Shown: in pieces, positions 52,420 through 64,000 of the stretch | Numbering within the stretch: the stretch's first letter is position 1 | Layout: each line of letters starts with the position of its first letter | From: Patescibacteria group bacterium | Lineage (GTDB): Bacteria; Patescibacteriota; Saccharimonadia; UBA4664 | Length of the DNA stretch: 64,000 nt | NCBI GenBank assembly: GCA_028288925.1 | Contig: JAQGHG010000010.1 | Span: forward strand, 8,057-72,056 | Direction of reading: 5' to 3' | Translations under genes and position numbers: made by a program | The notes under the pieces: generated by a model | The model's input: the letters and a program-made list of their open reading frames with translations, nothing else | Databases searched by the model: none | What the model was told of the DNA's origin: nothing

Positions 52420-52821
52420 ATGACCATGGATCTGCAAGTAGGGGTAAAAGCCCTGATTCGAGATAACGACGGCCGGTTTTTGCTGCTGCACCGGACCGAG
52501 CCGCTGCTGGACGGGAGTGGTATGCGATGGGATATTCCGGGCGGCAAGATCAATGCCAACGAACGGCTGCCCGACGCGCTGCAACGCGAAGTGCTAAAAG
52601 AGACCGGCCTAGCGCTGGAAGGTGAGCCCGTGCTCGTGGCTGCCCAGGATATCTTCATCATGGGCGCGGGCCAACATGTGGTACGGCTGACGTATGTGGC
52701 GCGGGCCAAGGGATTTGTCCGGCTCGGCGACGAGCACCAGGAGTACCGCTGGCTCAAGCGCGAGGGGGCGCTGGGCCTGCCGGTGGATGATTATTTGCGG
52801 GCGGTACTGGAGTCTCTCTAG
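52420..52821 (+). CDS. NUDIX hydrolase
   Basis: GGKINANERLPDALQREVLKETGL Nudix box. Confidence 0.8.
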   Translation: MTMDLQVGVKALIRDNDGRFLLLHRTEPLLDGSGMRWDIPGGKINANERLPDALQREVLKETGLALEGEPVLVAAQDIFIMGAGQHVVRLTYVARAKGFVRLGDEHQEYRWLKREGALGLPVDDYLRAVLESL

Positions 52822-53906
52822 GCTTCGAGGCGGACGATGCCGGCGTCGGCGTCGACGGTGACGCGCTGGCCGTCCTTGAGCTTGGTAGTGGCATCGCGGG
52901 TGGCGGTGAGGCAGGGTTTGCCGAGCTCGCGGGCGATGATAGCCGCGTGGCTCAGTATGCCGCCCAGATCGGTGACGATGGCGGCGGCCTGTTGCATGAG
53001 CGGCAGATAGTCCGGCGTGGTCATGCGGCAGACCAGGATTTCGCCGGGGTTCAGTGTCACGTTTTTAATGTCTTCAACTATGCGTATGCGACCCGTGGCC
53101 TTCCCCGGGCTACCAGCCTGGCCTGATACCAGTGCATTTTTGGTATGGTCCCCTATGGCCAAGGGCGTCTGATAAAGCCGTCCCAAGATGCGATTGTAGT
53201 CGATAAACCAGATCCCGAATTGGTCCGAAGCGGTACTCTCAAAGTAGCCCTCCAGATAGTTGTGAGCAAACGTAGCATCGAGTTCAGCCGCAAGGATGCT
53301 TTGTTTATCCGCGTCGGCTACCCGGAGGTGAGCTAGGAGAACTTTAAGATGCTCAAGCGCCGCCGGTTCGTCCTGATCCATATTCCAGGTATCAAAATCC
53401 CATGAAAAGCCTATGGGTGTATGGGCTTCGTAGTAGCCTTGAGTAAGTTCATTGTGACCACCCCTAGTAATCTCCCCGAATACCCCCTGGTGATTGACGA
53501 CAAAGATGGTGGCCCAGTTGGTTCGCTCTGCATGAGGTACAAAGTCGATGCGGTAATCGGAGGGATTAATGGTTTGGCCGGCGAGCCAATCCAGGGCATC
53601 GTTTATTGTTTTGCCACGCATTCGCAGTTTGGGCAATGCAGGATCATGGGGTATAACGCGAATGGCACAGAGTTCGTGGCCGTGGGTTTTGAGGAAAGCC
53701 TGGAACTTGGTTCCGCGCTCGATAACTGTTTTTGCCTCAAACTGCTGTGGTTGGTCAAACGGAAGCCCGATGAGCTCTTTGAGATGTCTGAGACGCTCGC
53801 GTTTGTTGTTGTCTTCGATACTCATGGCCTCAGCTCCAGCGTGGTTCATCTTCTGTAGCCATTCGGTGAGTGATATTTGCTTTTTATAGAAAGCGGCGTG
53901 GTCCAT
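52818..53906 (-). CDS. PEP-utilising-enzyme mobile (phosphohistidine) domain protein with ~250-aa uncharacterised N-terminal region
   Basis: C-terminal GRIRIVEDI...DLGGILSHAAIIARELGKPCL; own AGGAG RBS. Confidence 0.7.
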   Translation of the reverse strand: MDHAAFYKKQISLTEWLQKMNHAGAEAMSIEDNNKRERLRHLKELIGLPFDQPQQFEAKTVIERGTKFQAFLKTHGHELCAIRVIPHDPALPKLRMRGKTINDALDWLAGQTINPSDYRIDFVPHAERTNWATIFVVNHQGVFGEITRGGHNELTQGYYEAHTPIGFSWDFDTWNMDQDEPAALEHLKVLLAHLRVADADKQSILAAELDATFAHNYLEGYFESTASDQFGIWFIDYNRILGRLYQTPLAIGDHTKNALVSGQAGSPGKATGRIRIVEDIKNVTLNPGEILVCRMTTPDYLPLMQQAAAIVTDLGGILSHAAIIARELGKPCLTATRDATTKLKDGQRVTVDADAGIVRLEA

Positions 53907-53921: not shown

Positions 53922-54755
53922 TTAGAGGGTGGTAATGGGACGGGCTTGGAGGATGTGGAGTTTGTCCCAGGCATAGGCCCACTCGAGGTCGAGCGGAAGG
54001 CCAAATTGGGCTTCGAGGCGGCCCGCCAGCTGGGTGAGTTCGGCGAGCTGGACCGGAGTGAGAGCGGGCTTGGTTTGACGGTCCGGAGCTACGGGCTGCT
54101 CTCTGAGACCGCTGGTCGCCCCCACCAGCATAACGGTTTTTTCGACGATGGTCTGATTGATGATTTGACCTGTGGTTTTATTAATAAGGTAATTATCGGG
54201 CGTCGCGATGCCTTGCACTAATAGCTCTCCCAGGCCATAAACGGCTTCTACCACGATCTGATCGCGGGCCTTGGTGACGGGATTGGCGGTAAAGAGCACG
54301 CCGGAAACGTCGCTTGGGATCATGGCCTGAACGATGACTGCCACGGGCATGTGGCTCCGGCCGGCGTCATAGGCTTGGGCGCGGGCGGCCGCGCCGGACC
54401 GGCGGCAATCGGCGATGCGCGCCAAGATGTCGCCGCGCTGCACGTACAGGTAGCTCTCGAACTGACCGGCCCATGATTGGCCCGGGCCGTCCTCCCCCAC
54501 CCCCGAGGAACGTACCGCCACGGAAGGCGTACCGAGCTGATCGAAGGCAGCGAGTATTTGGCTTTGCGAGGCTCCGATATCAGTGTCCGGCGGCACGACG
54601 AAGCCCGGCGGCACCGGCGCGCCGTACGCCATGAGCCGGCCGAGAGCGGCGGCTTTGCCGCCTACCGTGCCGAGGGGCGCTGCGGCGGCTTGCTTGAGGC
54701 CCCAGGTAATACGTGCGTTAGGTGAGATCATATATGCGATTATATCCTTATTCAT
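53922..54755 (-). CDS. pyruvate-phosphate-dikinase N-terminal (ATP-grasp PEP/pyruvate-binding, PPDK_N) domain protein
   Basis: GGKAAALGRL...VAVRSSGVGEDGPGQSWAGQFESYL...ANPVT. With the downstream ORF it forms a split PEP-synthase / rifampin-phosphotransferase-like enzyme. Confidence 0.7.
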   Translation of the reverse strand: MNKDIIAYMISPNARITWGLKQAAAAPLGTVGGKAAALGRLMAYGAPVPPGFVVPPDTDIGASQSQILAAFDQLGTPSVAVRSSGVGEDGPGQSWAGQFESYLYVQRGDILARIADCRRSGAAARAQAYDAGRSHMPVAVIVQAMIPSDVSGVLFTANPVTKARDQIVVEAVYGLGELLVQGIATPDNYLINKTTGQIINQTIVEKTVMLVGATSGLREQPVAPDRQTKPALTPVQLAELTQLAGRLEAQFGLPLDLEWAYAWDKLHILQARPITTL

Positions 54756-55672: not shown

Positions 55673-56242
55673 CTATTTGACGATGAGCAGCAGGATGAGG
55701 CTGGCGGCGAGCAGGCCGATGAAGACAAGGGCGGCCATCTCGGTGAGCTGCTGCTCGCGGGCTTCGACCTCGCGCAGATTGCGGGCGGCCACCACGTAGC
55801 CGCCGTGATAGTGGACGATGACGGCGGCGAGGCGGGATTGATCGTTGGGCTGCCAGGTGACGCGGTTTTCCTGAGGGGCGGCGGTGTCTTTGCCGGTGTC
55901 GGCCTTGGCGGCCGCGAAGGCGCCGGCCGGAGGCAGCACGGTGGCGCCGTCGAGCGTACCGGAGGTGGCGACGACGCCGCGCTGCTCATCGGTGACGATC
56001 AGGAACGGCGCCAAGCTGGCGCGCATATTCACCTGGCGGGCCGGCACGAGCGCACTGGGCTTCTCGCCGGCGGCCAGGGCGGCGGCGGTGTCCTCGGCCA
56101 TCTGGATCTGCGGGTCGTTGGCCGCCTGGCGGTGGCTCTGCTGCACGGTGGCGTACACCAGCGTGGTGAGGCCGACGCTCATCACCAAGTATGGCAGCCA
56201 GAGCCGGACGAGGGGAATTTCGCGAAAGGTGGGTAATTTCAT
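55673..56242 (-). CDS. hypothetical bitopic membrane protein (N- and C-terminal TM, Ala-rich periplasmic domain)
   Basis: Hydrophobic profile; preceded by RR-box site 2 and an 11-codon leaderless mini-ORF. Confidence 0.5.
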   Translation of the reverse strand: MKLPTFREIPLVRLWLPYLVMSVGLTTLVYATVQQSHRQAANDPQIQMAEDTAAALAAGEKPSALVPARQVNMRASLAPFLIVTDEQRGVVATSGTLDGATVLPPAGAFAAAKADTGKDTAAPQENRVTWQPNDQSRLAAVIVHYHGGYVVAARNLREVEAREQQLTEMAALVFIGLLAASLILLLIVK

Positions 56243-56298: not shown

Positions 56299-56329
56299 CT
56301 TACGCCTGCGGTGTGAAGGGGGCGTGAAG
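56299..56329 (-). promoter_or_regulatory. RR-box site 2: CTTACGCCTGCGGTGTGAAGGGGGCGTGAAG (GTGAAG-N5-GTGAA) 9 nt upstream of a mini-ORF ATG (56290)
   Basis: Same spacing and architecture as the sites at 59054 and 63361; in gene orientation a -10-like TAAGCT lies 7 nt before the ATG. Confidence 0.5.
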
Positions 56330-56334
56330 ACCTA

Positions 56335-56736
56335 TTACTCGTGTTTGAGCACTTGTTTAAAGTCGGCCATTGTCATAATCCTAATACCTTTGTGCTCGCC
56401 CAGCACCAATAGGTCCTGATCGGCCGTCACCAAATAATCAACCCGTCCGGCGATAGCTGCTGCCAAAATATGGTCGTCGGATGGGTCGCGGCAGATTTGT
56501 TCGATAGTGGTAGGAGTGACTACCTCGGAAACTTTGGCGAGTGCTCGGGTGGCGGCTTTGGCTTTCTGCTTAGTGAGACCTAAAGCTTCTACGAGCACCC
56601 GCTCGGTTTCATCGAGGATGAACTCCGAGGTTATATGGGCTACCTCGTTGTGCAGCAGGAGGTTTCGAAACACCAGCAGCTCGCCACGGCGCGCCAGTAT
56701 CTTTATGAGGATATTAGTGTCGAAAAGTACCCGCAT
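56335..56736 (-). CDS. PIN-domain toxin (putative VapC-like TA toxin)
   Basis: MRVLFDTNILI...D...D acidic PIN residues. Confidence 0.7.
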   Translation of the reverse strand: MRVLFDTNILIKILARRGELLVFRNLLLHNEVAHITSEFILDETERVLVEALGLTKQKAKAATRALAKVSEVVTPTTIEQICRDPSDDHILAAAIAGRVDYLVTADQDLLVLGEHKGIRIMTMADFKQVLKHE

Positions 56737-56739
56737 TGG

Positions 56740-57021
56740 CTACTTTTGAGTTTTTTGCTTCTGGCGGATGGTTTTAACAGCGCGCACAAAATCTTCATCG
56801 GTGTCGTAGCCTAGCGCCTGGGCTTTGATGGCCACATCCTCGGACAGGGCCTCGAGCAAGAGCCAATTGTCGGCCCGGCTCTGCATTTCGGTGGCTTTGA
56901 GCCTGCCCACGAGAGCTTGGCGAATGTAGTCGCTACGGCTGGCGTATTCGGCCTTGGCGGCTACGTCGATCTTTTTGACGAGCTCTTCGGGCAGGGAGAT
57001 GTTGATGGTTTGGGTGGACAT
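56740..57021 (-). CDS. ribbon-helix-helix (CopG-like) antitoxin
   Basis: INISLPEELVKKIDVAAKAEYASRSDYIRQAL RHH; 3-nt gap to the PIN gene. Confidence 0.65.
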   Translation of the reverse strand: MSTQTINISLPEELVKKIDVAAKAEYASRSDYIRQALVGRLKATEMQSRADNWLLLEALSEDVAIKAQALGYDTDEDFVRAVKTIRQKQKTQK

Positions 57022-57090: not shown

Positions 57091-58371
57091 TTAATCGTGG
57101 CGCAGCGCGGTGATGGGATCGAGGCGGGCGGCGCGGAGGGCGGGCAGCGTGCCGGCGAGCAGACCCAGGGCCATGGCCCCAGCGATGATGAAGATCATAT
57201 CGGTAGCCGGGTACAGCAGGATGTGGGTACCGGGAAAGCCTTTAAAGACCGACTTGAGCAAGATGCGGTCAATGAGCGGCCCGATGGCTATGGCCAGCCC
57301 TACGCCCGCTACGCCGCCCCAGAAGCCGATGGAGACGGCCTCGGATAGGAAGATGGCGAAGATGCCACGCGGGCGCATGCCTAGCGCCTTGAGCAGGCCG
57401 ACCTCTTGCGTGCGCTCGAGCACGGCCATGAGCAGGGTGTTGATGATGCCCAGCGCGGCGGCCAGCAAGGCTACCCCGGCGAAGGCGCTCAGACCCAGCT
57501 GCACCATATTGATGACGGTGTTGAAGTGGGCGGTTTCGTCGGCGAAGGTTTGGGCACTGTAGCCGCCGGCGTCGAGCGCGGACTTCATGCTGGCGGTTTG
57601 GGCGGAGGTCTGGTTGGGGTCGGTGGTGGCGAAGAGGCCTTCGGCTTTGAGTTTGCCGGCGGTTTGGTAGCTCGCCAGGTCGGCCTGCTCCAGGTAGCTG
57701 ATGGTCGCTCCCGGCGCGTGCAGGGTGTCGCTGGCCACGGCCGCCACCTTAAACTGTACGGTTTCGGAGCGCAGCACCTGGCCGGGCTTGTCGCCGGCCT
57801 GGCTCAGGCCCACGGTCACGGTCTTGCCCAGGGCGTCGGCGGCCGAGGCAAAGCCCAGGGTCTGGATGTAGGCGTAGGGCAGCACGATGGCGGTCTTGTC
57901 GGCCGGGTCGGGGTATTTGCCGGCGGTCACTTCTGGGTTGTTGGCGGTGGGATAGTTGGCTTGGAGCTGCACCACGTATTTCTTGCCACTGCCGGCCTGG
58001 ATGTAGTCCGGATTTACCTTATACACGGGATATGCTCCGGTGACGCCGGCCGCTTTCTTCACGGCGGCCACGTCGGCGTCGGTCATGTAGACGGTGCCGG
58101 TGGCGGCGCTGTGGGTGGGATCGTATTCGAGCACATTATTGGCGCTGCGGCGCTCGTCTTTGGTGTTGGCTTTGAGCTGCACGCTCATGGTATTAGGCTG
58201 GCCGTAGGCCTGGATCTGCGCGTCTATGTAGTGCCGCACGCCCTGGCTGAGCGCGGTGACCATAGCGAGCGTGAAGGTGCCTACTAAAATGGCGGTCACC
58301 GTAAGGAAGGTGCGGGACTTGGAGCGGGCCAGGTTGGAGCTGCCGGTTTTGGCGTATTCGAGGAGTTTCAT
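57091..58371 (-). CDS. ABC transporter permease, FtsX/MacB-type (1 TM + large extracytoplasmic domain + 3 TM)
   Basis: FtsX-like C-terminal TM bundle; overlaps the ATPase gene by 1 nt. Confidence 0.8.
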   Translation of the reverse strand: MKLLEYAKTGSSNLARSKSRTFLTVTAILVGTFTLAMVTALSQGVRHYIDAQIQAYGQPNTMSVQLKANTKDERRSANNVLEYDPTHSAATGTVYMTDADVAAVKKAAGVTGAYPVYKVNPDYIQAGSGKKYVVQLQANYPTANNPEVTAGKYPDPADKTAIVLPYAYIQTLGFASAADALGKTVTVGLSQAGDKPGQVLRSETVQFKVAAVASDTLHAPGATISYLEQADLASYQTAGKLKAEGLFATTDPNQTSAQTASMKSALDAGGYSAQTFADETAHFNTVINMVQLGLSAFAGVALLAAALGIINTLLMAVLERTQEVGLLKALGMRPRGIFAIFLSEAVSIGFWGGVAGVGLAIAIGPLIDRILLKSVFKGFPGTHILLYPATDMIFIIAGAMALGLLAGTLPALRAARLDPITALRHD

Positions 58372-59045
58372 TACTGGATCTTCCCGTCTTTTATGATGAT
58401 GGTACGGTCGCAGAGCTTGGCCAGGTCGGCGTCGTGGGTCACGACCACCAGGGTGATGTGGCGCTTGCGGTGCAAGTCAAATAGCAGCTTGATGACGGTA
58501 TGGCCGGTCTGGGTATCCAGGTTGCCGGTGGGCTCGTCGGCGAAGATCACTTCGGGGCCGGCCACCAGGGCGCGGGCGATGGCTACGCGCTGCTTTTGGC
58601 CGCCGGAGAGGTCGGTGGCGCGGTTTTTGGCCTTGTCGGTCAGCTCCACTTGCTCTAGGGCTTCCATGGCGCGGCGGTTGCTCTCCGCGACGGAGATGTT
58701 GGCAATCTTGAGCGGCAGCGCCACGTTTTCGAGCACGGTCAGGCGCGGCTGCAGGAAGAATTGTTGGAATATGAAGCCAAATTTGGTGTTGCGCAAGGAG
58801 CTGAGCTCGCCCTCGCTCATGTGGCCCAGATCGTGGCCGCCGACCTTTACCGAGCCGGAGGTGGCGGTGTCGAGCCCGGCCAGCAGGTGCATGAGTGTGG
58901 ATTTGCCCGAGCCGCTCTTGCCCACTATGGCCACGCTCTCGCCCGGCGCGATGCTCAGATCCACGCCGCGCAGCGCCTCATAGGCCGTATCGCGCTTGCC
59001 ATAGGTTTTATGGAGTTGGTTGGTTTGGAGTAATGCGTTTGTCAT
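58371..59045 (-). CDS. ABC transporter ATP-binding protein (MacB/LolD/BceA-like)
   Basis: GKSGSGKST Walker A, LSGGQKQR signature, FADEPTGNLD Walker B. Confidence 0.9.
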   Translation of the reverse strand: MTNALLQTNQLHKTYGKRDTAYEALRGVDLSIAPGESVAIVGKSGSGKSTLMHLLAGLDTATSGSVKVGGHDLGHMSEGELSSLRNTKFGFIFQQFFLQPRLTVLENVALPLKIANISVAESNRRAMEALEQVELTDKAKNRATDLSGGQKQRVAIARALVAGPEVIFADEPTGNLDTQTGHTVIKLLFDLHRKRHITLVVVTHDADLAKLCDRTIIIKDGKIQ

Positions 59046-59053
59046 GGTCTTAC

Positions 59054-59084
59054 TTTACACCGGGGATGTGAAGGGGGTGTGAAC
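59054..59084 (-). promoter_or_regulatory. RR-box site 1: TTTACACCGGGGATGTGAAGGGGGTGTGAAC, 8 nt upstream of the ABC ATPase ATG
   Basis: GTGAAG-N5-GTGAA with 11-bp periodicity; in gene orientation a -10-like TAAAGT lies 7 nt before the ATG (leaderless). Confidence 0.55.
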
Positions 59085-59132
59085 GACGAACGGCCCGATA
59101 CTATTCATCAAAGATTCTGCTATTCTCGAGAT

Positions 59133-59822
59133 ATGCAGCCGTTTAATACCGAAATTGACCAAATTACGCAAGACGTCTCCTCATATGCTAAGAGGATTTT
59201 TGATGAATATGCGGAGCTTAATCTCGAGTTAAAATCTGATTATTCAAAAAGCGCGGTATGGATAAGTTTTCACCTGGGTTGTGATTATTTCTTGAGTGCT
59301 CGCGATACCTTGGAAGCGAGCCGACTCCTAGGAGGAGGTGCAATTGTCAGAACATGTATTGAGAATATAGCTGATCTTTTCTATATCTTCGCCTCGTCAC
59401 AAAAAGAGGGTAAGCGAGCTAAGGCTTACGTCGAAAGTCTAGAGACATTTAGACAGAAGATGATAGAGATAACGAAATTGGGCAGCGATGCCGTCTTTGA
59501 GGCTCGCATGGCGAAACAGGTTAATGACTGGACCACCTCTACCATTACCGATCGAATGAAGGTGACAGGTCAAGCGATGACGACAATCTATGACTTTCTT
59601 AGTTACTCGAGCCACCCCAACCCAGGCGCTCTTTCCTATCTCCTAATTCCAGGGTTCAAAAAAGCACAACAAAATTTACTGCAACAGGTCAATTGTACCG
59701 TGATGTTGCATTTAATTAGTCATGTTCTCATGCATGATGATCTCAAGTCAGTGACCCTAGAAGAAGCCGACGCCGTAGCTAGGCGCCTTGGCTCAAAAGT
59801 ATTACCTGATGGAGAGAGGTAA
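59133..59822 (+). CDS. hypothetical cytoplasmic alpha-helical protein (low-GC island gene A)
   Basis: ~40% GC against ~62% background. The ORF-track start at 59079 is a GTG inside the RR-box, so the first ATG (59133) is preferred. Confidence 0.5.
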   Translation: MQPFNTEIDQITQDVSSYAKRIFDEYAELNLELKSDYSKSAVWISFHLGCDYFLSARDTLEASRLLGGGAIVRTCIENIADLFYIFASSQKEGKRAKAYVESLETFRQKMIEITKLGSDAVFEARMAKQVNDWTTSTITDRMKVTGQAMTTIYDFLSYSSHPNPGALSYLLIPGFKKAQQNLLQQVNCTVMLHLISHVLMHDDLKSVTLEEADAVARRLGSKVLPDGER

Positions 59823-59835
59823 TTGATGGTGGTAT

Positions 59836-60519
59836 TCACTTGAGCATTAGGGGCAGGTTTGAAGTAACCCATCTCCAGTCAAAAAGGACTGCCTGCAAGA
59901 GAACGAAATACGCGATTAGAGCTATCTTTAAAGCCCACTTCTGAACGTTTAACCATCTAGGTTCGGGTGTTGTTTTTCCCTGAGTTGGCTTGAAGATGAC
60001 ATTTTCCATAGTCTCCATTTCGCCAAAACTACGAAACTTTGCTTCAGATAGTAATTTAGCCCTTGCGCTATTAGCAAAACCCCACATCTTATGGAAGCCC
60101 ACAAGTACCATATAATATTGAAGCCCAGCAGCAATGGAAACTCCGAGCGACAGAACGCCCAAGAGGGTCAGCCATTTCTGATCAAACGTCATCGACTTCA
60201 GAATCTCACCGTTAGAGAGCATAACTATGTTTGCCGACAACATTACAGTCGTTGCCAGCATTAGCTGACCACACATAGCCCTCTCTGTCTCGTTTTCCTC
60301 TAGAAAGGCTTTGTCTCTTTGGTGCACCGCTTTCTCGATTTCTCCATCCAGGAAATTCTTGAGCTCTGGCGTTTTCTGGGCGAGGTCAGAATATATTGGA
60401 CGGGTATCGGGAGTTGCACTCGACAAGGAGCCGCGTTCAGTCTTTGATCTACTGATTCTGGTCACTTGATGTAGGGGCTTCTGGTGCCGTAGAAGTAGGC
60501 TCACTAACCGCAGGTCCAC
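59836..60519 (-). CDS. hypothetical membrane protein (low-GC island gene B; start uncertain, GTG 60519 or ATG 60276)
   Basis: Three or four TM helices in the C-terminal two-thirds; a 68-aa ORF (60449..60655) overlaps in another frame, which may indicate a frameshift. Confidence 0.45.
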   Translation of the reverse strand: MDLRLVSLLLRHQKPLHQVTRISRSKTERGSLSSATPDTRPIYSDLAQKTPELKNFLDGEIEKAVHQRDKAFLEENETERAMCGQLMLATTVMLSANIVMLSNGEILKSMTFDQKWLTLLGVLSLGVSIAAGLQYYMVLVGFHKMWGFANSARAKLLSEAKFRSFGEMETMENVIFKPTQGKTTPEPRWLNVQKWALKIALIAYFVLLQAVLFDWRWVTSNLPLMLK

Positions 60520-60720
60520 TTACTTGGGTTTCAGCCGGATTGCTTACTTGACTCATGTCAGGGTAAATCGCATGGGGTGTGCGGTCATCAGAGCCTTTAA
60601 CCACACGACCAGTTGGAATATCTACGAGTTTAACTTCTTTGCTGTCTTCATTCATAATTGCTTGCCCCTTTATATTCTTAGTGTACTTCTTTCACAGTCG
60701 TTCTGTGTAGCCATTTTTCT

Positions 60721-61611
60721 CTAATCAGTGCTTGATGACTGGTCTTGCCTCTGAGATGCATGCCAAGCTGCTTTCTCCGCTACATCTGCATCCATAATCT
60801 CTTGACCCTCCCTGGAGACAACCTTCATTTCAGCCTTAACAGCTTCGTCAGTAATCGAACTTTTACGACTAGCGACGATCCCATTCGACCGCTTAATCAT
60901 ATCTGGGGTCTTGTCGACGTTGGTGGCCAACCGCACATAGGCCGTAATCTCTCTGAGCCTATGGGCGATTAGGTACTCGATGAAATCAACGATTCCGCTC
61001 ATCTGGCTACGGATGTGAGTTGTGTGGTTTTTATAAATCTCGGGGGACATTATTGCCTTCAGCCTCAACTCCCCCAGCTCATCCAAGGTTCTGCCGATAC
61101 CCTGGCTGTCCAAATTCAATCGGCGTATATCGTAGTAAAGGTCACTTAGCATTTGGGCCAGTTTAAGGTCCGCAAGTTTCAGGAAATGGGCTTCATCCGT
61201 TGGCAAGTGAACCGGTCGCCGAAAGTTGACCGCACCTTGATCACTTGCTTGGATTAGCGACTTGATTGCCACAATGTTGTCACCGAGCATGGCGTACAAG
61301 AGTACCAATTCACGATTGAGCTTAATCAGGTCATTGTAGTGCAATACGCGTCGTTCGTGGGCTAAGCGCCGATCTTCCGCCGCCAGGTCAGCTTTGAGCT
61401 TTCGTTGGTCCTTATACCAGTCGTTAATGACGATACCCAGAGTGGCGCCAAGGGCGCCGATTAGCCCGCCGAGAGCTGACGATACTGATTGCTGTCCTAG
61501 GGGACTAAGTATAGGCATACTGGGACGAAAACGAGCTACCAGATAGCAAAGTGAACCTAGTGCTACCAGAATGATGGCCGTGGAGCCATAAGCCCTGAGT
61601 TTTCGAGTCAT
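60721..61611 (-). CDS. hypothetical protein with two N-terminal TM helices and long cytoplasmic helical domain (low-GC island gene C)
   Basis: ~37% GC; ATG 61611 (GTG 61620 is the alternative); located 59 nt downstream of the histidine-kinase stop. Confidence 0.5.
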   Translation of the reverse strand: MTRKLRAYGSTAIILVALGSLCYLVARFRPSMPILSPLGQQSVSSALGGLIGALGATLGIVINDWYKDQRKLKADLAAEDRRLAHERRVLHYNDLIKLNRELVLLYAMLGDNIVAIKSLIQASDQGAVNFRRPVHLPTDEAHFLKLADLKLAQMLSDLYYDIRRLNLDSQGIGRTLDELGELRLKAIMSPEIYKNHTTHIRSQMSGIVDFIEYLIAHRLREITAYVRLATNVDKTPDMIKRSNGIVASRKSSITDEAVKAEMKVVSREGQEIMDADVAEKAAWHASQRQDQSSSTD

Positions 61612-61679
61612 AGTATCCACACCGGCTCCAGATTAGAGATACTATAACTCACGGTCGGCCAGATAGAAACTTCTGGATA

Positions 61680-62681
61680 TTAGTGAGGGATCGGTAGCTC
61701 AATGATAAACGTCGCGCCAGGACGGATGTTCTCGGCAGAAATGGACCAGCCGTGCGCTTCGGTGATTTCTTTGGCTATGGCAAGCCCTAAACCGAGGCCA
61801 CCGGTAGCGCGGGAGCGGGATTCGTCCACTCTGTAGAAGCGTTCGAAGAGGTCGGGGAGGCTTTCTTCCGGGATGCCTCGGCCGTTGTCTTGGACAGATA
61901 GCATACTGCCGTCGTAGGTGAGGGTGATTTGGGTGCCTTGGGAGTATCGGATGGCATTACTTATGAGATTGCCGAGCAGGCGTTCGAGGAGTTTGGGGTC
62001 GGCCTGGAGGGGTTGGGAGGTGAGATTGAGGTCGAGGGTGAGGTTGGCGGTTTTGAGCTCGTCGGCGTAGTGGCGGCTTAGGCGGCGGGCGAGTTTGGCG
62101 AGGTCGACGGGCTCGAGGTGGGGGCGGATGGCCGAGGAGCGGATGGAGGCGTAGTCGCCCAGGCCTTGGACGAGGTCACTGAGGCGTTCGGCTTGTTCGT
62201 AGAGGAGTTGGACGCGGTCTTGGTCCATTCTGAGGACGCCGTCTTTGACGCCTTTGAGCTGGGCGTAGAGGGCCGTGACGGGGGTGTTGAGCTCGTGGGA
62301 GGTGTCGGAGATGAGGTCGCGGCGGAGTTTTTCTTCGTGGGCCAGGCGGGTGCCAAGCTCGTTGACTTCGGCGATGACGGCGTCGAATTCCTGGACGTCG
62401 CTGGATCCCAGCTTGGCCTGGTAGTTGTTTTGGCGCAGGGAGGCGATGACTGCGGCGAGGTTGCGCAGGGGCTCGGACACCAGGCGGGCGGCCAGGATGC
62501 CGAGAATGAGCGGGATGAGGATAGCCAGGGTGGGCAGCTCCAGGAAGACGAGCGGGAAGTGGGTGCGGCCGGAGCGGACGTAGAAGGCGGTGATGATGAG
62601 GGCGCCGATGAACAGCGTGGGGCCGACCACCACGATGAGCAGCGCGATGCGGACGGAGAGGCGGCGGAAGAGGCGCTTCAC
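61680..62681 (-). CDS. intramembrane-sensing sensor histidine kinase (BceS/LiaS-like: two TM with very short loop, HisKA + HATPase_c)
   Basis: SHELNTP H-box, GLGLGLAIAKEI G-box; ATGA overlap with the RR gene. Confidence 0.85.
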   Translation of the reverse strand: MKRLFRRLSVRIALLIVVVGPTLFIGALIITAFYVRSGRTHFPLVFLELPTLAILIPLILGILAARLVSEPLRNLAAVIASLRQNNYQAKLGSSDVQEFDAVIAEVNELGTRLAHEEKLRRDLISDTSHELNTPVTALYAQLKGVKDGVLRMDQDRVQLLYEQAERLSDLVQGLGDYASIRSSAIRPHLEPVDLAKLARRLSRHYADELKTANLTLDLNLTSQPLQADPKLLERLLGNLISNAIRYSQGTQITLTYDGSMLSVQDNGRGIPEESLPDLFERFYRVDESRSRATGGLGLGLAIAKEITEAHGWSISAENIRPGATFIIELPIPH

Positions 62682-63360: not shown

Positions 63361-63391
63361 TTTTACACGAGGGGCGTGAAGCTGGCGTGAA
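63361..63391 (-). promoter_or_regulatory. RR-box site 3: TTTACACGAGGGGCGTGAAGCTGGCGTGAAT, 8 nt upstream of the RR ATG (likely autoregulatory)
   Basis: Same motif and spacing as site 1; in gene orientation TAAAAT lies 8 nt before the ATG. Confidence 0.55.
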
Positions 63392-63470
63392 TGCCCCCTG
63401 TGAGCTTTTTGAGGGCGGGTTGAACCTGCGCGAGTTTAAATTAGAGAAACAGCTGGTGTTGGTATATAAT

Positions 63471-64000
63471 TTAAAGATTCATGCTTCTGCTCTGCTACGT
63501 CTTCTACTTCATTGCGGCTACGCTCTCGCCGCTACAACGGCGTAAACTTTCACTCACATCCCCTACTAGCGGTTACACATTTGCCTTCGCCTTTAGGACT
63601 TCACTTGTAGTAGGTTGCCTCGGCTTACTCTTACCTTTCTTCTCACCAGCGGAATTCAAGGGAGAATCATCAACAATCTTGGTTCTGGCATTTGCTAGTG
63701 GTATATTCGGCACCATCTCAATCACAAGTCAATATTGGGCACAAAAACACGTTGAGGCAGGCACTACCATCCTCATTGGAAACATATACACTCCAGTGAC
63801 AATTATTTTGGCGTCCTTATTGCTAAGAGAAGGACTCACACCACTGCAAGCAATCGGGACTCTATTACTGCTTGCTGCAATGATAGTGGTCTCAAAAAAA
63901 CATCACCTTGGTAAACAGCGATTCGACAAATACTTCTTAACAATGCTTTTAAGCGGGATCGCTCTCGGAATCGCTCTAACTGCGGAACGTGCACTTATTA
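63471..64000 (+). CDS. EamA/DMT-family transporter (3' end beyond window)
   Basis: No stop codon before the window end; EamA-like LLLREGLTPLQAIGTLLLLAAMIVV; low GC; not in the ORF track. Confidence 0.55.

Follow-up and report, generated by a model that had tools for sequence, protein, structure and literature searches.

Abortive-infection genes can be embedded in restriction-modification (R-M) loci, as is the case for PrrC in EcoprrI and for RloC. Other defence systems employ transmembrane (TM) effectors, among them Cap14 and Cap15 of CBASS, the two-TM (2TM) proteins of SLATT, PycTM of Pycsar, and retron-TM. The bacteria of the Candidate Phyla Radiation (CPR), or Patescibacteria, are thought to be reliant on restriction and abortive infection, and the majority of their accessory genes have no annotation. 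These bacteria are reported to lack CRISPR-Cas almost entirely (PMC4742961). Here, we describe a block of low guanine-cytosine (GC) content from the metagenome-assembled genome of a Patescibacteria group bacterium (assembly GCA_028288925.1), which is located at positions 59085-61679 of a 64,000-nt stretch of contig JAQGHG010000010.1 (the window in the following). The block carries four genes, called A, s68, B, and C, and lies in the gap between the operon of a response regulator (RR) and its histidine kinase (HK) and the RR-dependent promoter of an ABC transporter operon. On balance, the block is probably a horizontally acquired mosaic islet in this gap, composed of three independent modules (A, s68+B, and C) of which C would be a passenger of defence islands.

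The block has a GC content of 46.7% versus 59.1% in the remainder of the window and ranks lowest of all 2.6-kb stretches, which in sliding windows across the whole window have a mean of 58.6% (sd 2.4%); the non-overlapping runner-up has 53.1%. In 300-bp windows the GC content is 41-50% within the block and 59-69% in the flanks. The initial annotation had placed the block at the same coordinates with 35-42% inside and 62-68% outside. Coordinates, contrast, and flank values hold, but the interior is less extreme. The codon composition differs in the same way, with a GC content at third codon positions (GC3) of 0.44 in A, 0.51 in B, 0.35 in s68, and 0.54 in C, far below the 0.81-0.85 of the RR, HK, ABC ATPase, and permease genes and below the window median of 0.71. 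The block occupies precisely the gap from the HK stop codon (61680) to the box of the ABC promoter (59083), and an insertion at this place would leave both transcription units intact. It seems very improbable that the region is native and consists of AT-biased, fast-evolving, lineage-specific orphan genes that were never acquired. The window has further short GC dips, and homologues are too rare to trace orthology, but GC3 is 0.3-0.4 below both flanking operons across four consecutive genes, the boundaries are sharp and match the operon edges, and the closest homologues of C and A are found in low-GC genomes (on contigs of 46% and 41% GC, respectively) with different neighbours. Together these observations support the horizontal acquisition that had been proposed from composition.

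The initial annotation had counted three genes in the block instead of four. All four open reading frames (ORFs), each compared with its nearest homologue, show a nonsynonymous divergence (pN) of 0.24-0.42 versus a saturated synonymous divergence (pS) of 0.80-0.92 (0.32 versus 0.92 for A). Because pN is well under pS, A, s68, B, and C are real genes under purifying selection. The fourth gene, s68, is preceded by an AAGGGG ribosome-binding site 9 nt 5' of its ATG and has a positional homologue next to a homologue of B. The B protein is basic, with an isoelectric point (pI) of 9.3, and contains three TM-like segments; the ENETERAMCGQLMLATTV motif where TM1 begins is strongly conserved. Its sole homologue outside this organism, P0005, has 42% identity and is encoded on a separate contig (L003), where it is preceded by an ORF of 65 residues (s65). 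The two small proteins are 30-37% identical and have the motif RV(V/F)KGS..(T/A)PHA.Y in common. Gene order and relative +1 frame are kept in L003, and the B homologue has an ATG of its own, which falls within the final 14 nt of s65. The overlap of s68 with B had been regarded as a hint at a frameshift or programmed event. However, because the overlap is conserved in L003 and the B homologue has its own ATG there, s68 is a separate gene, and both a programmed frameshift and a broken gene were rejected. Judging from these sequences, s68 and B are a conserved and translationally coupled gene pair. The L003 contig has 54% GC overall. Its s65+B segment (L003 157-910) has about 52% and adjoins an alcohol-dehydrogenase-like gene (labelled from its sequence by eye) of 60-63%, which is the same pattern of a foreign islet in another host.

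B does not belong to any family in Pfam, NCBIfam, PADLOC, or PHROG, the weak match to a PHROG holin having an E-value of 0.16. This match, the foreign composition, and the small membrane proteins could also fit a decayed prophage or mobile-element remnant. In such a remnant, s68+B would serve in lysis or exclusion in the manner of a holin pair, and A and C would be morons left behind without a current role. Bro-N, terminase small subunit, or LexA/S24 genes are present in some loci of the C family described below and would fit as well. This origin is nevertheless quite improbable. None of the four ORFs is disrupted, and purifying selection acts on all of them. Genes for structural proteins, an integrase, or a repressor are not found near the block. 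Scans of the IMG/VR viral contigs with alignments of A, B, and C and with the profile of a distant C subfamily revealed no relatives, and in tblastn searches A, B, and C had no match among 50,697 phage and 72,556 plasmid records.

Relatives of the block genes are rare, with one to three each for A, s68+B, and C among 5.8 billion clustered proteins. The three were never seen together in the loci of their homologues, none of about 40 fetched C-family loci contains relatives of A, B, or s68, and profile comparisons show no relation between A, B, and C, so that they are not paralogues. Because the relatives of A, s68+B, and C lie apart in unrelated contexts, the block is a mosaic and not a cassette, and the idea of a coherent three-gene island is not supported.

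Gene A matches the Pfam family DUF5677 with 32.2 bits (E=1.3e-7, gathering threshold 27.1) over positions 23-159 of the 166-position profile and is, although the match is weak, a predicted member of this family. The statement that the block contains no recognisable domains is therefore wrong for A, whose score exceeds the gathering threshold; B and C match no Pfam family. The homologues P0006 and P0007 both carry a precomputed PF18928 annotation. P0007 is 52% identical to A in an alignment that starts at M19. The 41% GC contig of the A homologue has neighbours unrelated to those in the window. The AlphaFold 2 (AF2) model of A, built from a two-sequence alignment, is composed of helices throughout and is unusable (pLDDT 46.5). 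Members of the DUF5677 family, which has no assigned function, are reported to be enriched beside serine recombinases in defence-rich contigs (preprint, PMC12632615). A HEPN-like nature of A was rejected; hhalign against the HEPN_AbiU2-like neighbour of a Saccharimonadales C-family gene gave a probability of 0.15%, and the alignment of A with P0007, read by eye, has no conserved Rx4-6H motif. The defence reading is weak for A.

The C protein in the NCBI annotation (JWN01_487) has only 265 residues, begins at M35, and misses the first TM helix. The upstream ATG at 61611 was taken as its start, in agreement with the alignment to the homologue P0003 and with the Logan gene call. P0003 is 63% identical to C and lies between an ORF of 199 residues and a Schlafen/AlbA_2-HATPase_c_4 gene. 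The gene for the 199-residue protein, located upstream, was considered as A-like and rejected, having neither similarity to A nor a Pfam match. When a profile of C and P0003 was run by HMMER against the full set of 1.84 billion representatives, a family of 51 representatives emerged at E<=1e-3, of which ten reach E<=1e-10. All 51 are 154-294 residues long and match C residues of about 88-280. At their N-terminus the family members have one or two TM helices, which contain a nearly invariant glycine; the helical domain behind them comprises about 190 residues and has the motifs HYNxL(V/I)xLE, DN, LxDxxLIN, and RRxNxD. C holds all nearly invariant residues (G55, L149, N156, N169, and D171) and is thus a member. 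The AF2 model of C from the C-family alignment has a pLDDT of 92.6 and a pTM of 0.80. It predicts a TM hairpin whose second helix runs on as an 88-residue stalk, packed against three more long helices, and agrees with the earlier description of a 2-TM protein with a long helical cytoplasmic domain. C and its family have no consistent family match in Pfam, PADLOC, and PHROG. Searches of 52 family members against PADLOC gave three single-member hits, each to a different model, with E-values from 7.6e-5 to 7.5e-3. Foldseek comparisons of the C model reached neither E<1e-3 nor a TM-score above 0.5, the best matches being E=0.067 with TM-scores of at most 0.28 in the Protein Data Bank (PDB), and E=0.076 in BFVD with TM-scores of at most 0.34 when normalised to the query and up to 0.43 when normalised to the target. 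When profiles of A, B, and C were used for sequence searches of the PDB, nothing meaningful emerged. The C family is previously undescribed, and is absent from Pfam, PADLOC, and PHROGs.

The genomic contexts of the C family make a defence-like reading for C plausible. The wide C-family alignments were too divergent for locus scans, and a narrower subfamily alignment was used for the metagenome scan, which revealed 31 loci of 30-44% GC. Two near-duplicates were dropped, and in the remaining 29 loci 90 neighbours are encoded within three genes. The most common of their Pfam families are Methylase_S, ResIII, HSDR_N, DEAD, SWI2_SNF2, N6_Mtase, N6_N4_Mtase, Eco57I, and MmeI_Mtase. The C-family gene follows HsdR and GmrSD after an 11-bp gap in L050 and an Eco57I/MmeI-type IIG enzyme after 3 bp in L062. 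It is found with HsdR and a HsdM-S fusion in L066, has type III Mod and Res on either side in L058 and L070, and is accompanied by ResIII, HATPase_c_3, and HARE-HTH in L046-48. The spacing between C-family and R-M genes ranges from a 20-nt overlap to 11 bp, on the same strand. Restriction genes are at most three genes away in six of the ten locus groups that have at least 4 kb of context, and in three short loci in addition. By these raw counts, taken without a matched background set, the C family is associated with defence islands. Single family members point in the same direction: P0011 is surrounded by serine recombinases, Replic_Relax, and a methylase with Eco29kI and Vsr, P0031 by three serine recombinases and a PIN gene, and P0008 is near a Fic-like gene. 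P0030, from a metagenome-assembled genome of Saccharimonadales, overlaps a HEPN_AbiU2-like gene by 17 nt and adjoins Mrr_cat and Bro-N genes. An all-against-all BLAST of the 90 neighbours revealed no recurrent partner of the C family besides R-M components.

Two further arrangements were observed in these loci. In L039 (2599-3859; also in L040 and L041, Candidatus Saccharimonadales) a HSP70 gene is followed after an 18-nt gap by the C-family gene, which overlaps a HEPN_AbiU2-like gene of 183 residues by 17 nt, while a Mrr_cat restriction gene converges on these two genes; C-family and HEPN genes may form a two-gene module. In L050 (316-8053) and L057 (221-1788) homologous proteins without Pfam domains are encoded after the C-family gene (433 residues in L050, partial in L057). 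The pair in L050 lies downstream of HsdR and the GmrSD type IV enzyme, and the 433-residue protein may be a subfamily-specific partner.

It could be that the C-family members serve, for example, as anchors or scaffolds, as membrane proteins of a housekeeping or regulatory kind, and pile up in variable regions alongside R-M systems. C has no enzymatic domain and matches no known defence model, one family member comes after a HSP70 gene, and four of the ten well-sampled locus groups have no R-M neighbour. However, such an accumulation is hard to reconcile with the tight same-strand contact to five different R-M architectures in unrelated loci and with the patchy, mostly singleton distribution that is typical of accessory genes, and we consider it unlikely. 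The defence-like function that the initial annotation had suggested for the whole block is partly supported, for C alone and solely through genomic association.

The flanking genes belong to what looks like a small regulon, as judged from the promoter sequences. The exact box TTCACRCCNNCTTCACR is present in three copies in the window, each 21-22 nt 5' of an ATG, and every copy is followed by a conserved CCxxGxGTAA(A/G)xTA(A/G)G element (GTAAA/GTAAG). The ATG at the box at 56312-56328 opens a mini-ORF of just ten codons, and the next gene, preceded by AAGGAG, encodes a membrane protein of 189 residues (55673-56242). Together, the sites look as if the OmpR-type regulator controlled a regulon of three promoters, with starts that are leaderless or nearly so. 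The coding strand of the block contains no RR box. The position between the two-component system (TCS) and the ABC transporter had been taken as a hint at an accessory function of the block, and the four genes could be accessory parts of a TCS-ABC peptide-antibiotic response, with transcription of the autoregulated RR-HK operon reading through into them. C, s68, and B are on the same strand after the HK gene, with a gap of 59-68 nt and without a convincing terminator. Two of the block proteins are membrane-located like many accessory proteins of the Bce/Lia type. We give this explanation little credence, because the block has no internal RR box and a foreign codon composition, and because A is on the opposite strand and convergent with B. 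In addition, no TCS or ABC component is encoded by the Pfam-marked genes that surround homologues of A, B, and C, many other genes there being unannotated or partial ORFs, and none of the 25 most frequent of the 68 Pfam families found next to C-family genes is a TCS or ABC family. Thus, neither co-occurrence nor an RR box connects the genes with the TCS-ABC module, and a functional tie is not supported. Promoter and terminator scans of the region revealed nothing above chance level, the number of terminator-like sites (Table 1) being that expected by chance, and a search of 52-64 kb against Rfam gave no match.

Table 1. Features of the low-GC block and of the surrounding regulon. Positions refer to the window.
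Feature	Position	Strand	Remarks
Low-GC block	59085..61679	.	46.7% GC; extends from the ABC-promoter RR box to the stop codon of HK
Gene A	59133..59822	+	229 aa from ATG 59133 (NCBI start, JWN01_484); ORF opens with GTG 59079; soluble; DUF5677 (PF18928)
Gene B	59836..60465	-	About 209 aa from GTG 60465; alternative start TTG 60426; ORF opens with GTG 60519
Gene s68	60449..60655	-	68 aa; acidic (pI 4.3); soluble; stop overlaps or abuts the B start, +1 frame
Gene C	60721..61611	-	296 aa from ATG 61611; ORF opens with GTG 61620; two TM helices, long stalk helix, cytoplasmic helical bundle
8-bp repeat GATACTAT	59097..59104, repeated at 61638-61645	+	Possible target-site duplication, not significant
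Terminator-like hairpin	59769..59787	-	About 50 nt 3' of B, overlapping the terminal part of A; might terminate a C-s68-B transcript (weak)
RR box TTCACACCCCCTTCACA	59067..59083	-	Promoter of the ABC operon, 21 nt 5' of the ABC ATG; left block edge
Histidine kinase	61680..62681	-	HAMP, HisKA, HATPase_c; native high-GC flank; stop codon is the right block edge
ABC ATPase	58371..59045	-	Leads the ABC/FtsX-MacB permease operon; native high-GC flank
TTCACRCCNNCTTCACR copies	59067-59083, 63375-63391, 56312-56328	-	In front of the ABC ATPase, the RR gene, and the mini-ORF with the 189-aa gene, respectively

Several other features were observed in the window. A ribbon-helix-helix (RHH, CopG/HicB-like) and PIN_3 toxin-antitoxin pair (56335-57021, minus strand, 52-56% GC, GC3 0.60-0.72) is placed between the permease stop codon and the RR box of the 189-residue protein gene, as a second small insertion in the same regulon. 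An EamA-family transporter gene of 43-47% GC (about 63440-64000, plus strand) adjoins the RR promoter in divergent orientation and runs off the window; therefore, low-GC DNA is present on both sides of the TCS. The other short GC dips in the window correspond to intergenic regions, the RHH-PIN module, and this EamA gene at 63.4-64 kb. The 164-residue ORF at 1433-1927 is also low in GC (48%, GC3 0.49) and overlaps tRNA-Leu, the sole tRNA of the window; it is probably spurious, or a sign of another small variable spot. On the minus strand, an ATP-binding PPDK_N ORF (52818-53906) and a PEP-utilizers ORF with the mobile His domain (53922-54755) are 15 nt apart and may be a split or frameshifted gene for a phosphoenolpyruvate (PEP) synthase or a protein like rifampicin phosphotransferase.

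A number of results weigh against a mobile origin of the block or against a role in defence. In accordance with the initial annotation, neither the block nor its flanks contain an integrase or recombinase, as judged from their ORFs and Pfam hits, and there is no significant flanking repeat. The 8-bp GATACTAT repeat was rejected as target duplication, since 126 of 2000 shuffles reach 8 bp (p of about 0.06). There is also no tRNA near the block, the only one in the window being located at 1856-1941. Thus, deviant composition is the one feature of classical genomic islands that the block displays, while integrase, tRNA target, and direct repeats are missing. A relative with an empty site was not found either; the scan of genome contigs with the HK revealed only distant kinases (at most 38% identity in the best segments) from unrelated phyla. 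The insertion is therefore inferred rather than observed. Concerning defence, A, s68, and C have no hit in PADLOC-DB v2, and B only hits PDC-S06 with E=0.05. Five of the nine ORFs assayed in the preprint mentioned above (PMC12632615) were named protective, and the DUF5677 ORF was outside these five. A helical bundle with an N-terminal anchor fits many roles outside defence. The counted R-M neighbours are mostly those of a subfamily that is about 20% identical to C, the closest relatives of C have shorter contexts, and C itself has no adjoining R-M system in the window. Any defence activity of these genes would be deduced from their context, and its mode of action from architecture and neighbourhood.

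If the block is an acquired mosaic islet, as we favour, its three unrelated accessory modules, A, s68+B, and C, would move independently elsewhere. C could be a stand-alone membrane-tethered sensor and effector of the abortive-infection or exclusion type. Its cluster of polar residues (H94-Y-N96, D114-N115, N156, R166-R167, N169, and D171) might detect an infection cue, and the TM helix containing the glycine might then act on the membrane. The s68+B pair could act on the membrane as a second module, which the small acidic s68 would restrain, and A could be a third accessory factor, soluble in this case. A bolder proposal, which is possible and rather doubtful, would be that the C family is a new and widespread class of single-gene membrane-anchored anti-phage effectors, an R-M-coupled back-up similar to PrrC that becomes active at the membrane once restriction has been subverted, and that it is typical of Patescibacteria/CPR and other groundwater bacteria largely without CRISPR. 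The islet would then comprise three undescribed defence modules (DUF5677, s68+B, and C).

The analysis has turned an anonymous low-GC patch into a precisely delimited insertion within a small regulon, and has revealed a conserved pair of a small protein and a membrane protein. In addition, the C family is now defined and testable: it comprises about 50 clusters, has conserved motifs and a confidently predicted fold, and is recurrently found in the vicinity of R-M systems. The islet itself is ordinary, and the C family is the part that deserves follow-up. If the family protects against phages, it would be a new type of membrane-anchored effector and a candidate for a second-line defence coupled to R-M systems; if it gives no protection, the block would be an ordinary horizontally acquired islet of orphan genes.

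In comparison to known systems, the host locus resembles the TCS-ABC modules of the Bce/MacB type. It encodes an OmpR-type RR, an ABC ATPase with an FtsX/MacB permease, and, as read by eye from the sequence, a kinase with two TM segments and a short loop as in these modules, and RR boxes are shared in front of the operons. The block genes differ from such modules in their foreign composition and in having no RR box, and they are outside such modules in every other locus seen. The s68+B pair is similar to toxin-antitoxin and holin-antiholin pairs, because it consists of overlapping genes for a small acidic soluble and a basic membrane protein, but it matches none of their families (the holin match being that with E=0.16), and just one homologous pair is known. 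The C family does not belong to the Pfam and PADLOC families of the TM effectors mentioned at the beginning, as matches were missing for all 52 members, and cyclase, SMODS, or other signal-generating partners are absent. It nevertheless shares with these effectors one or two N-terminal TM helices (with G55 in C), a cytoplasmic domain, and defence-island settings. PrrC and RloC are characterised by an ABC-type NTPase and an anticodon-nuclease domain. C, an all-helical bundle with TM helices and without any Pfam domain, has neither an NTPase nor a nuclease domain, is membrane-anchored, and shows no similarity to them in sequence or fold. The likeness is positional, in that C-family genes, similar to these abortive-infection genes, are found inside or directly next to restriction loci of types I, IIG, III, and IV.

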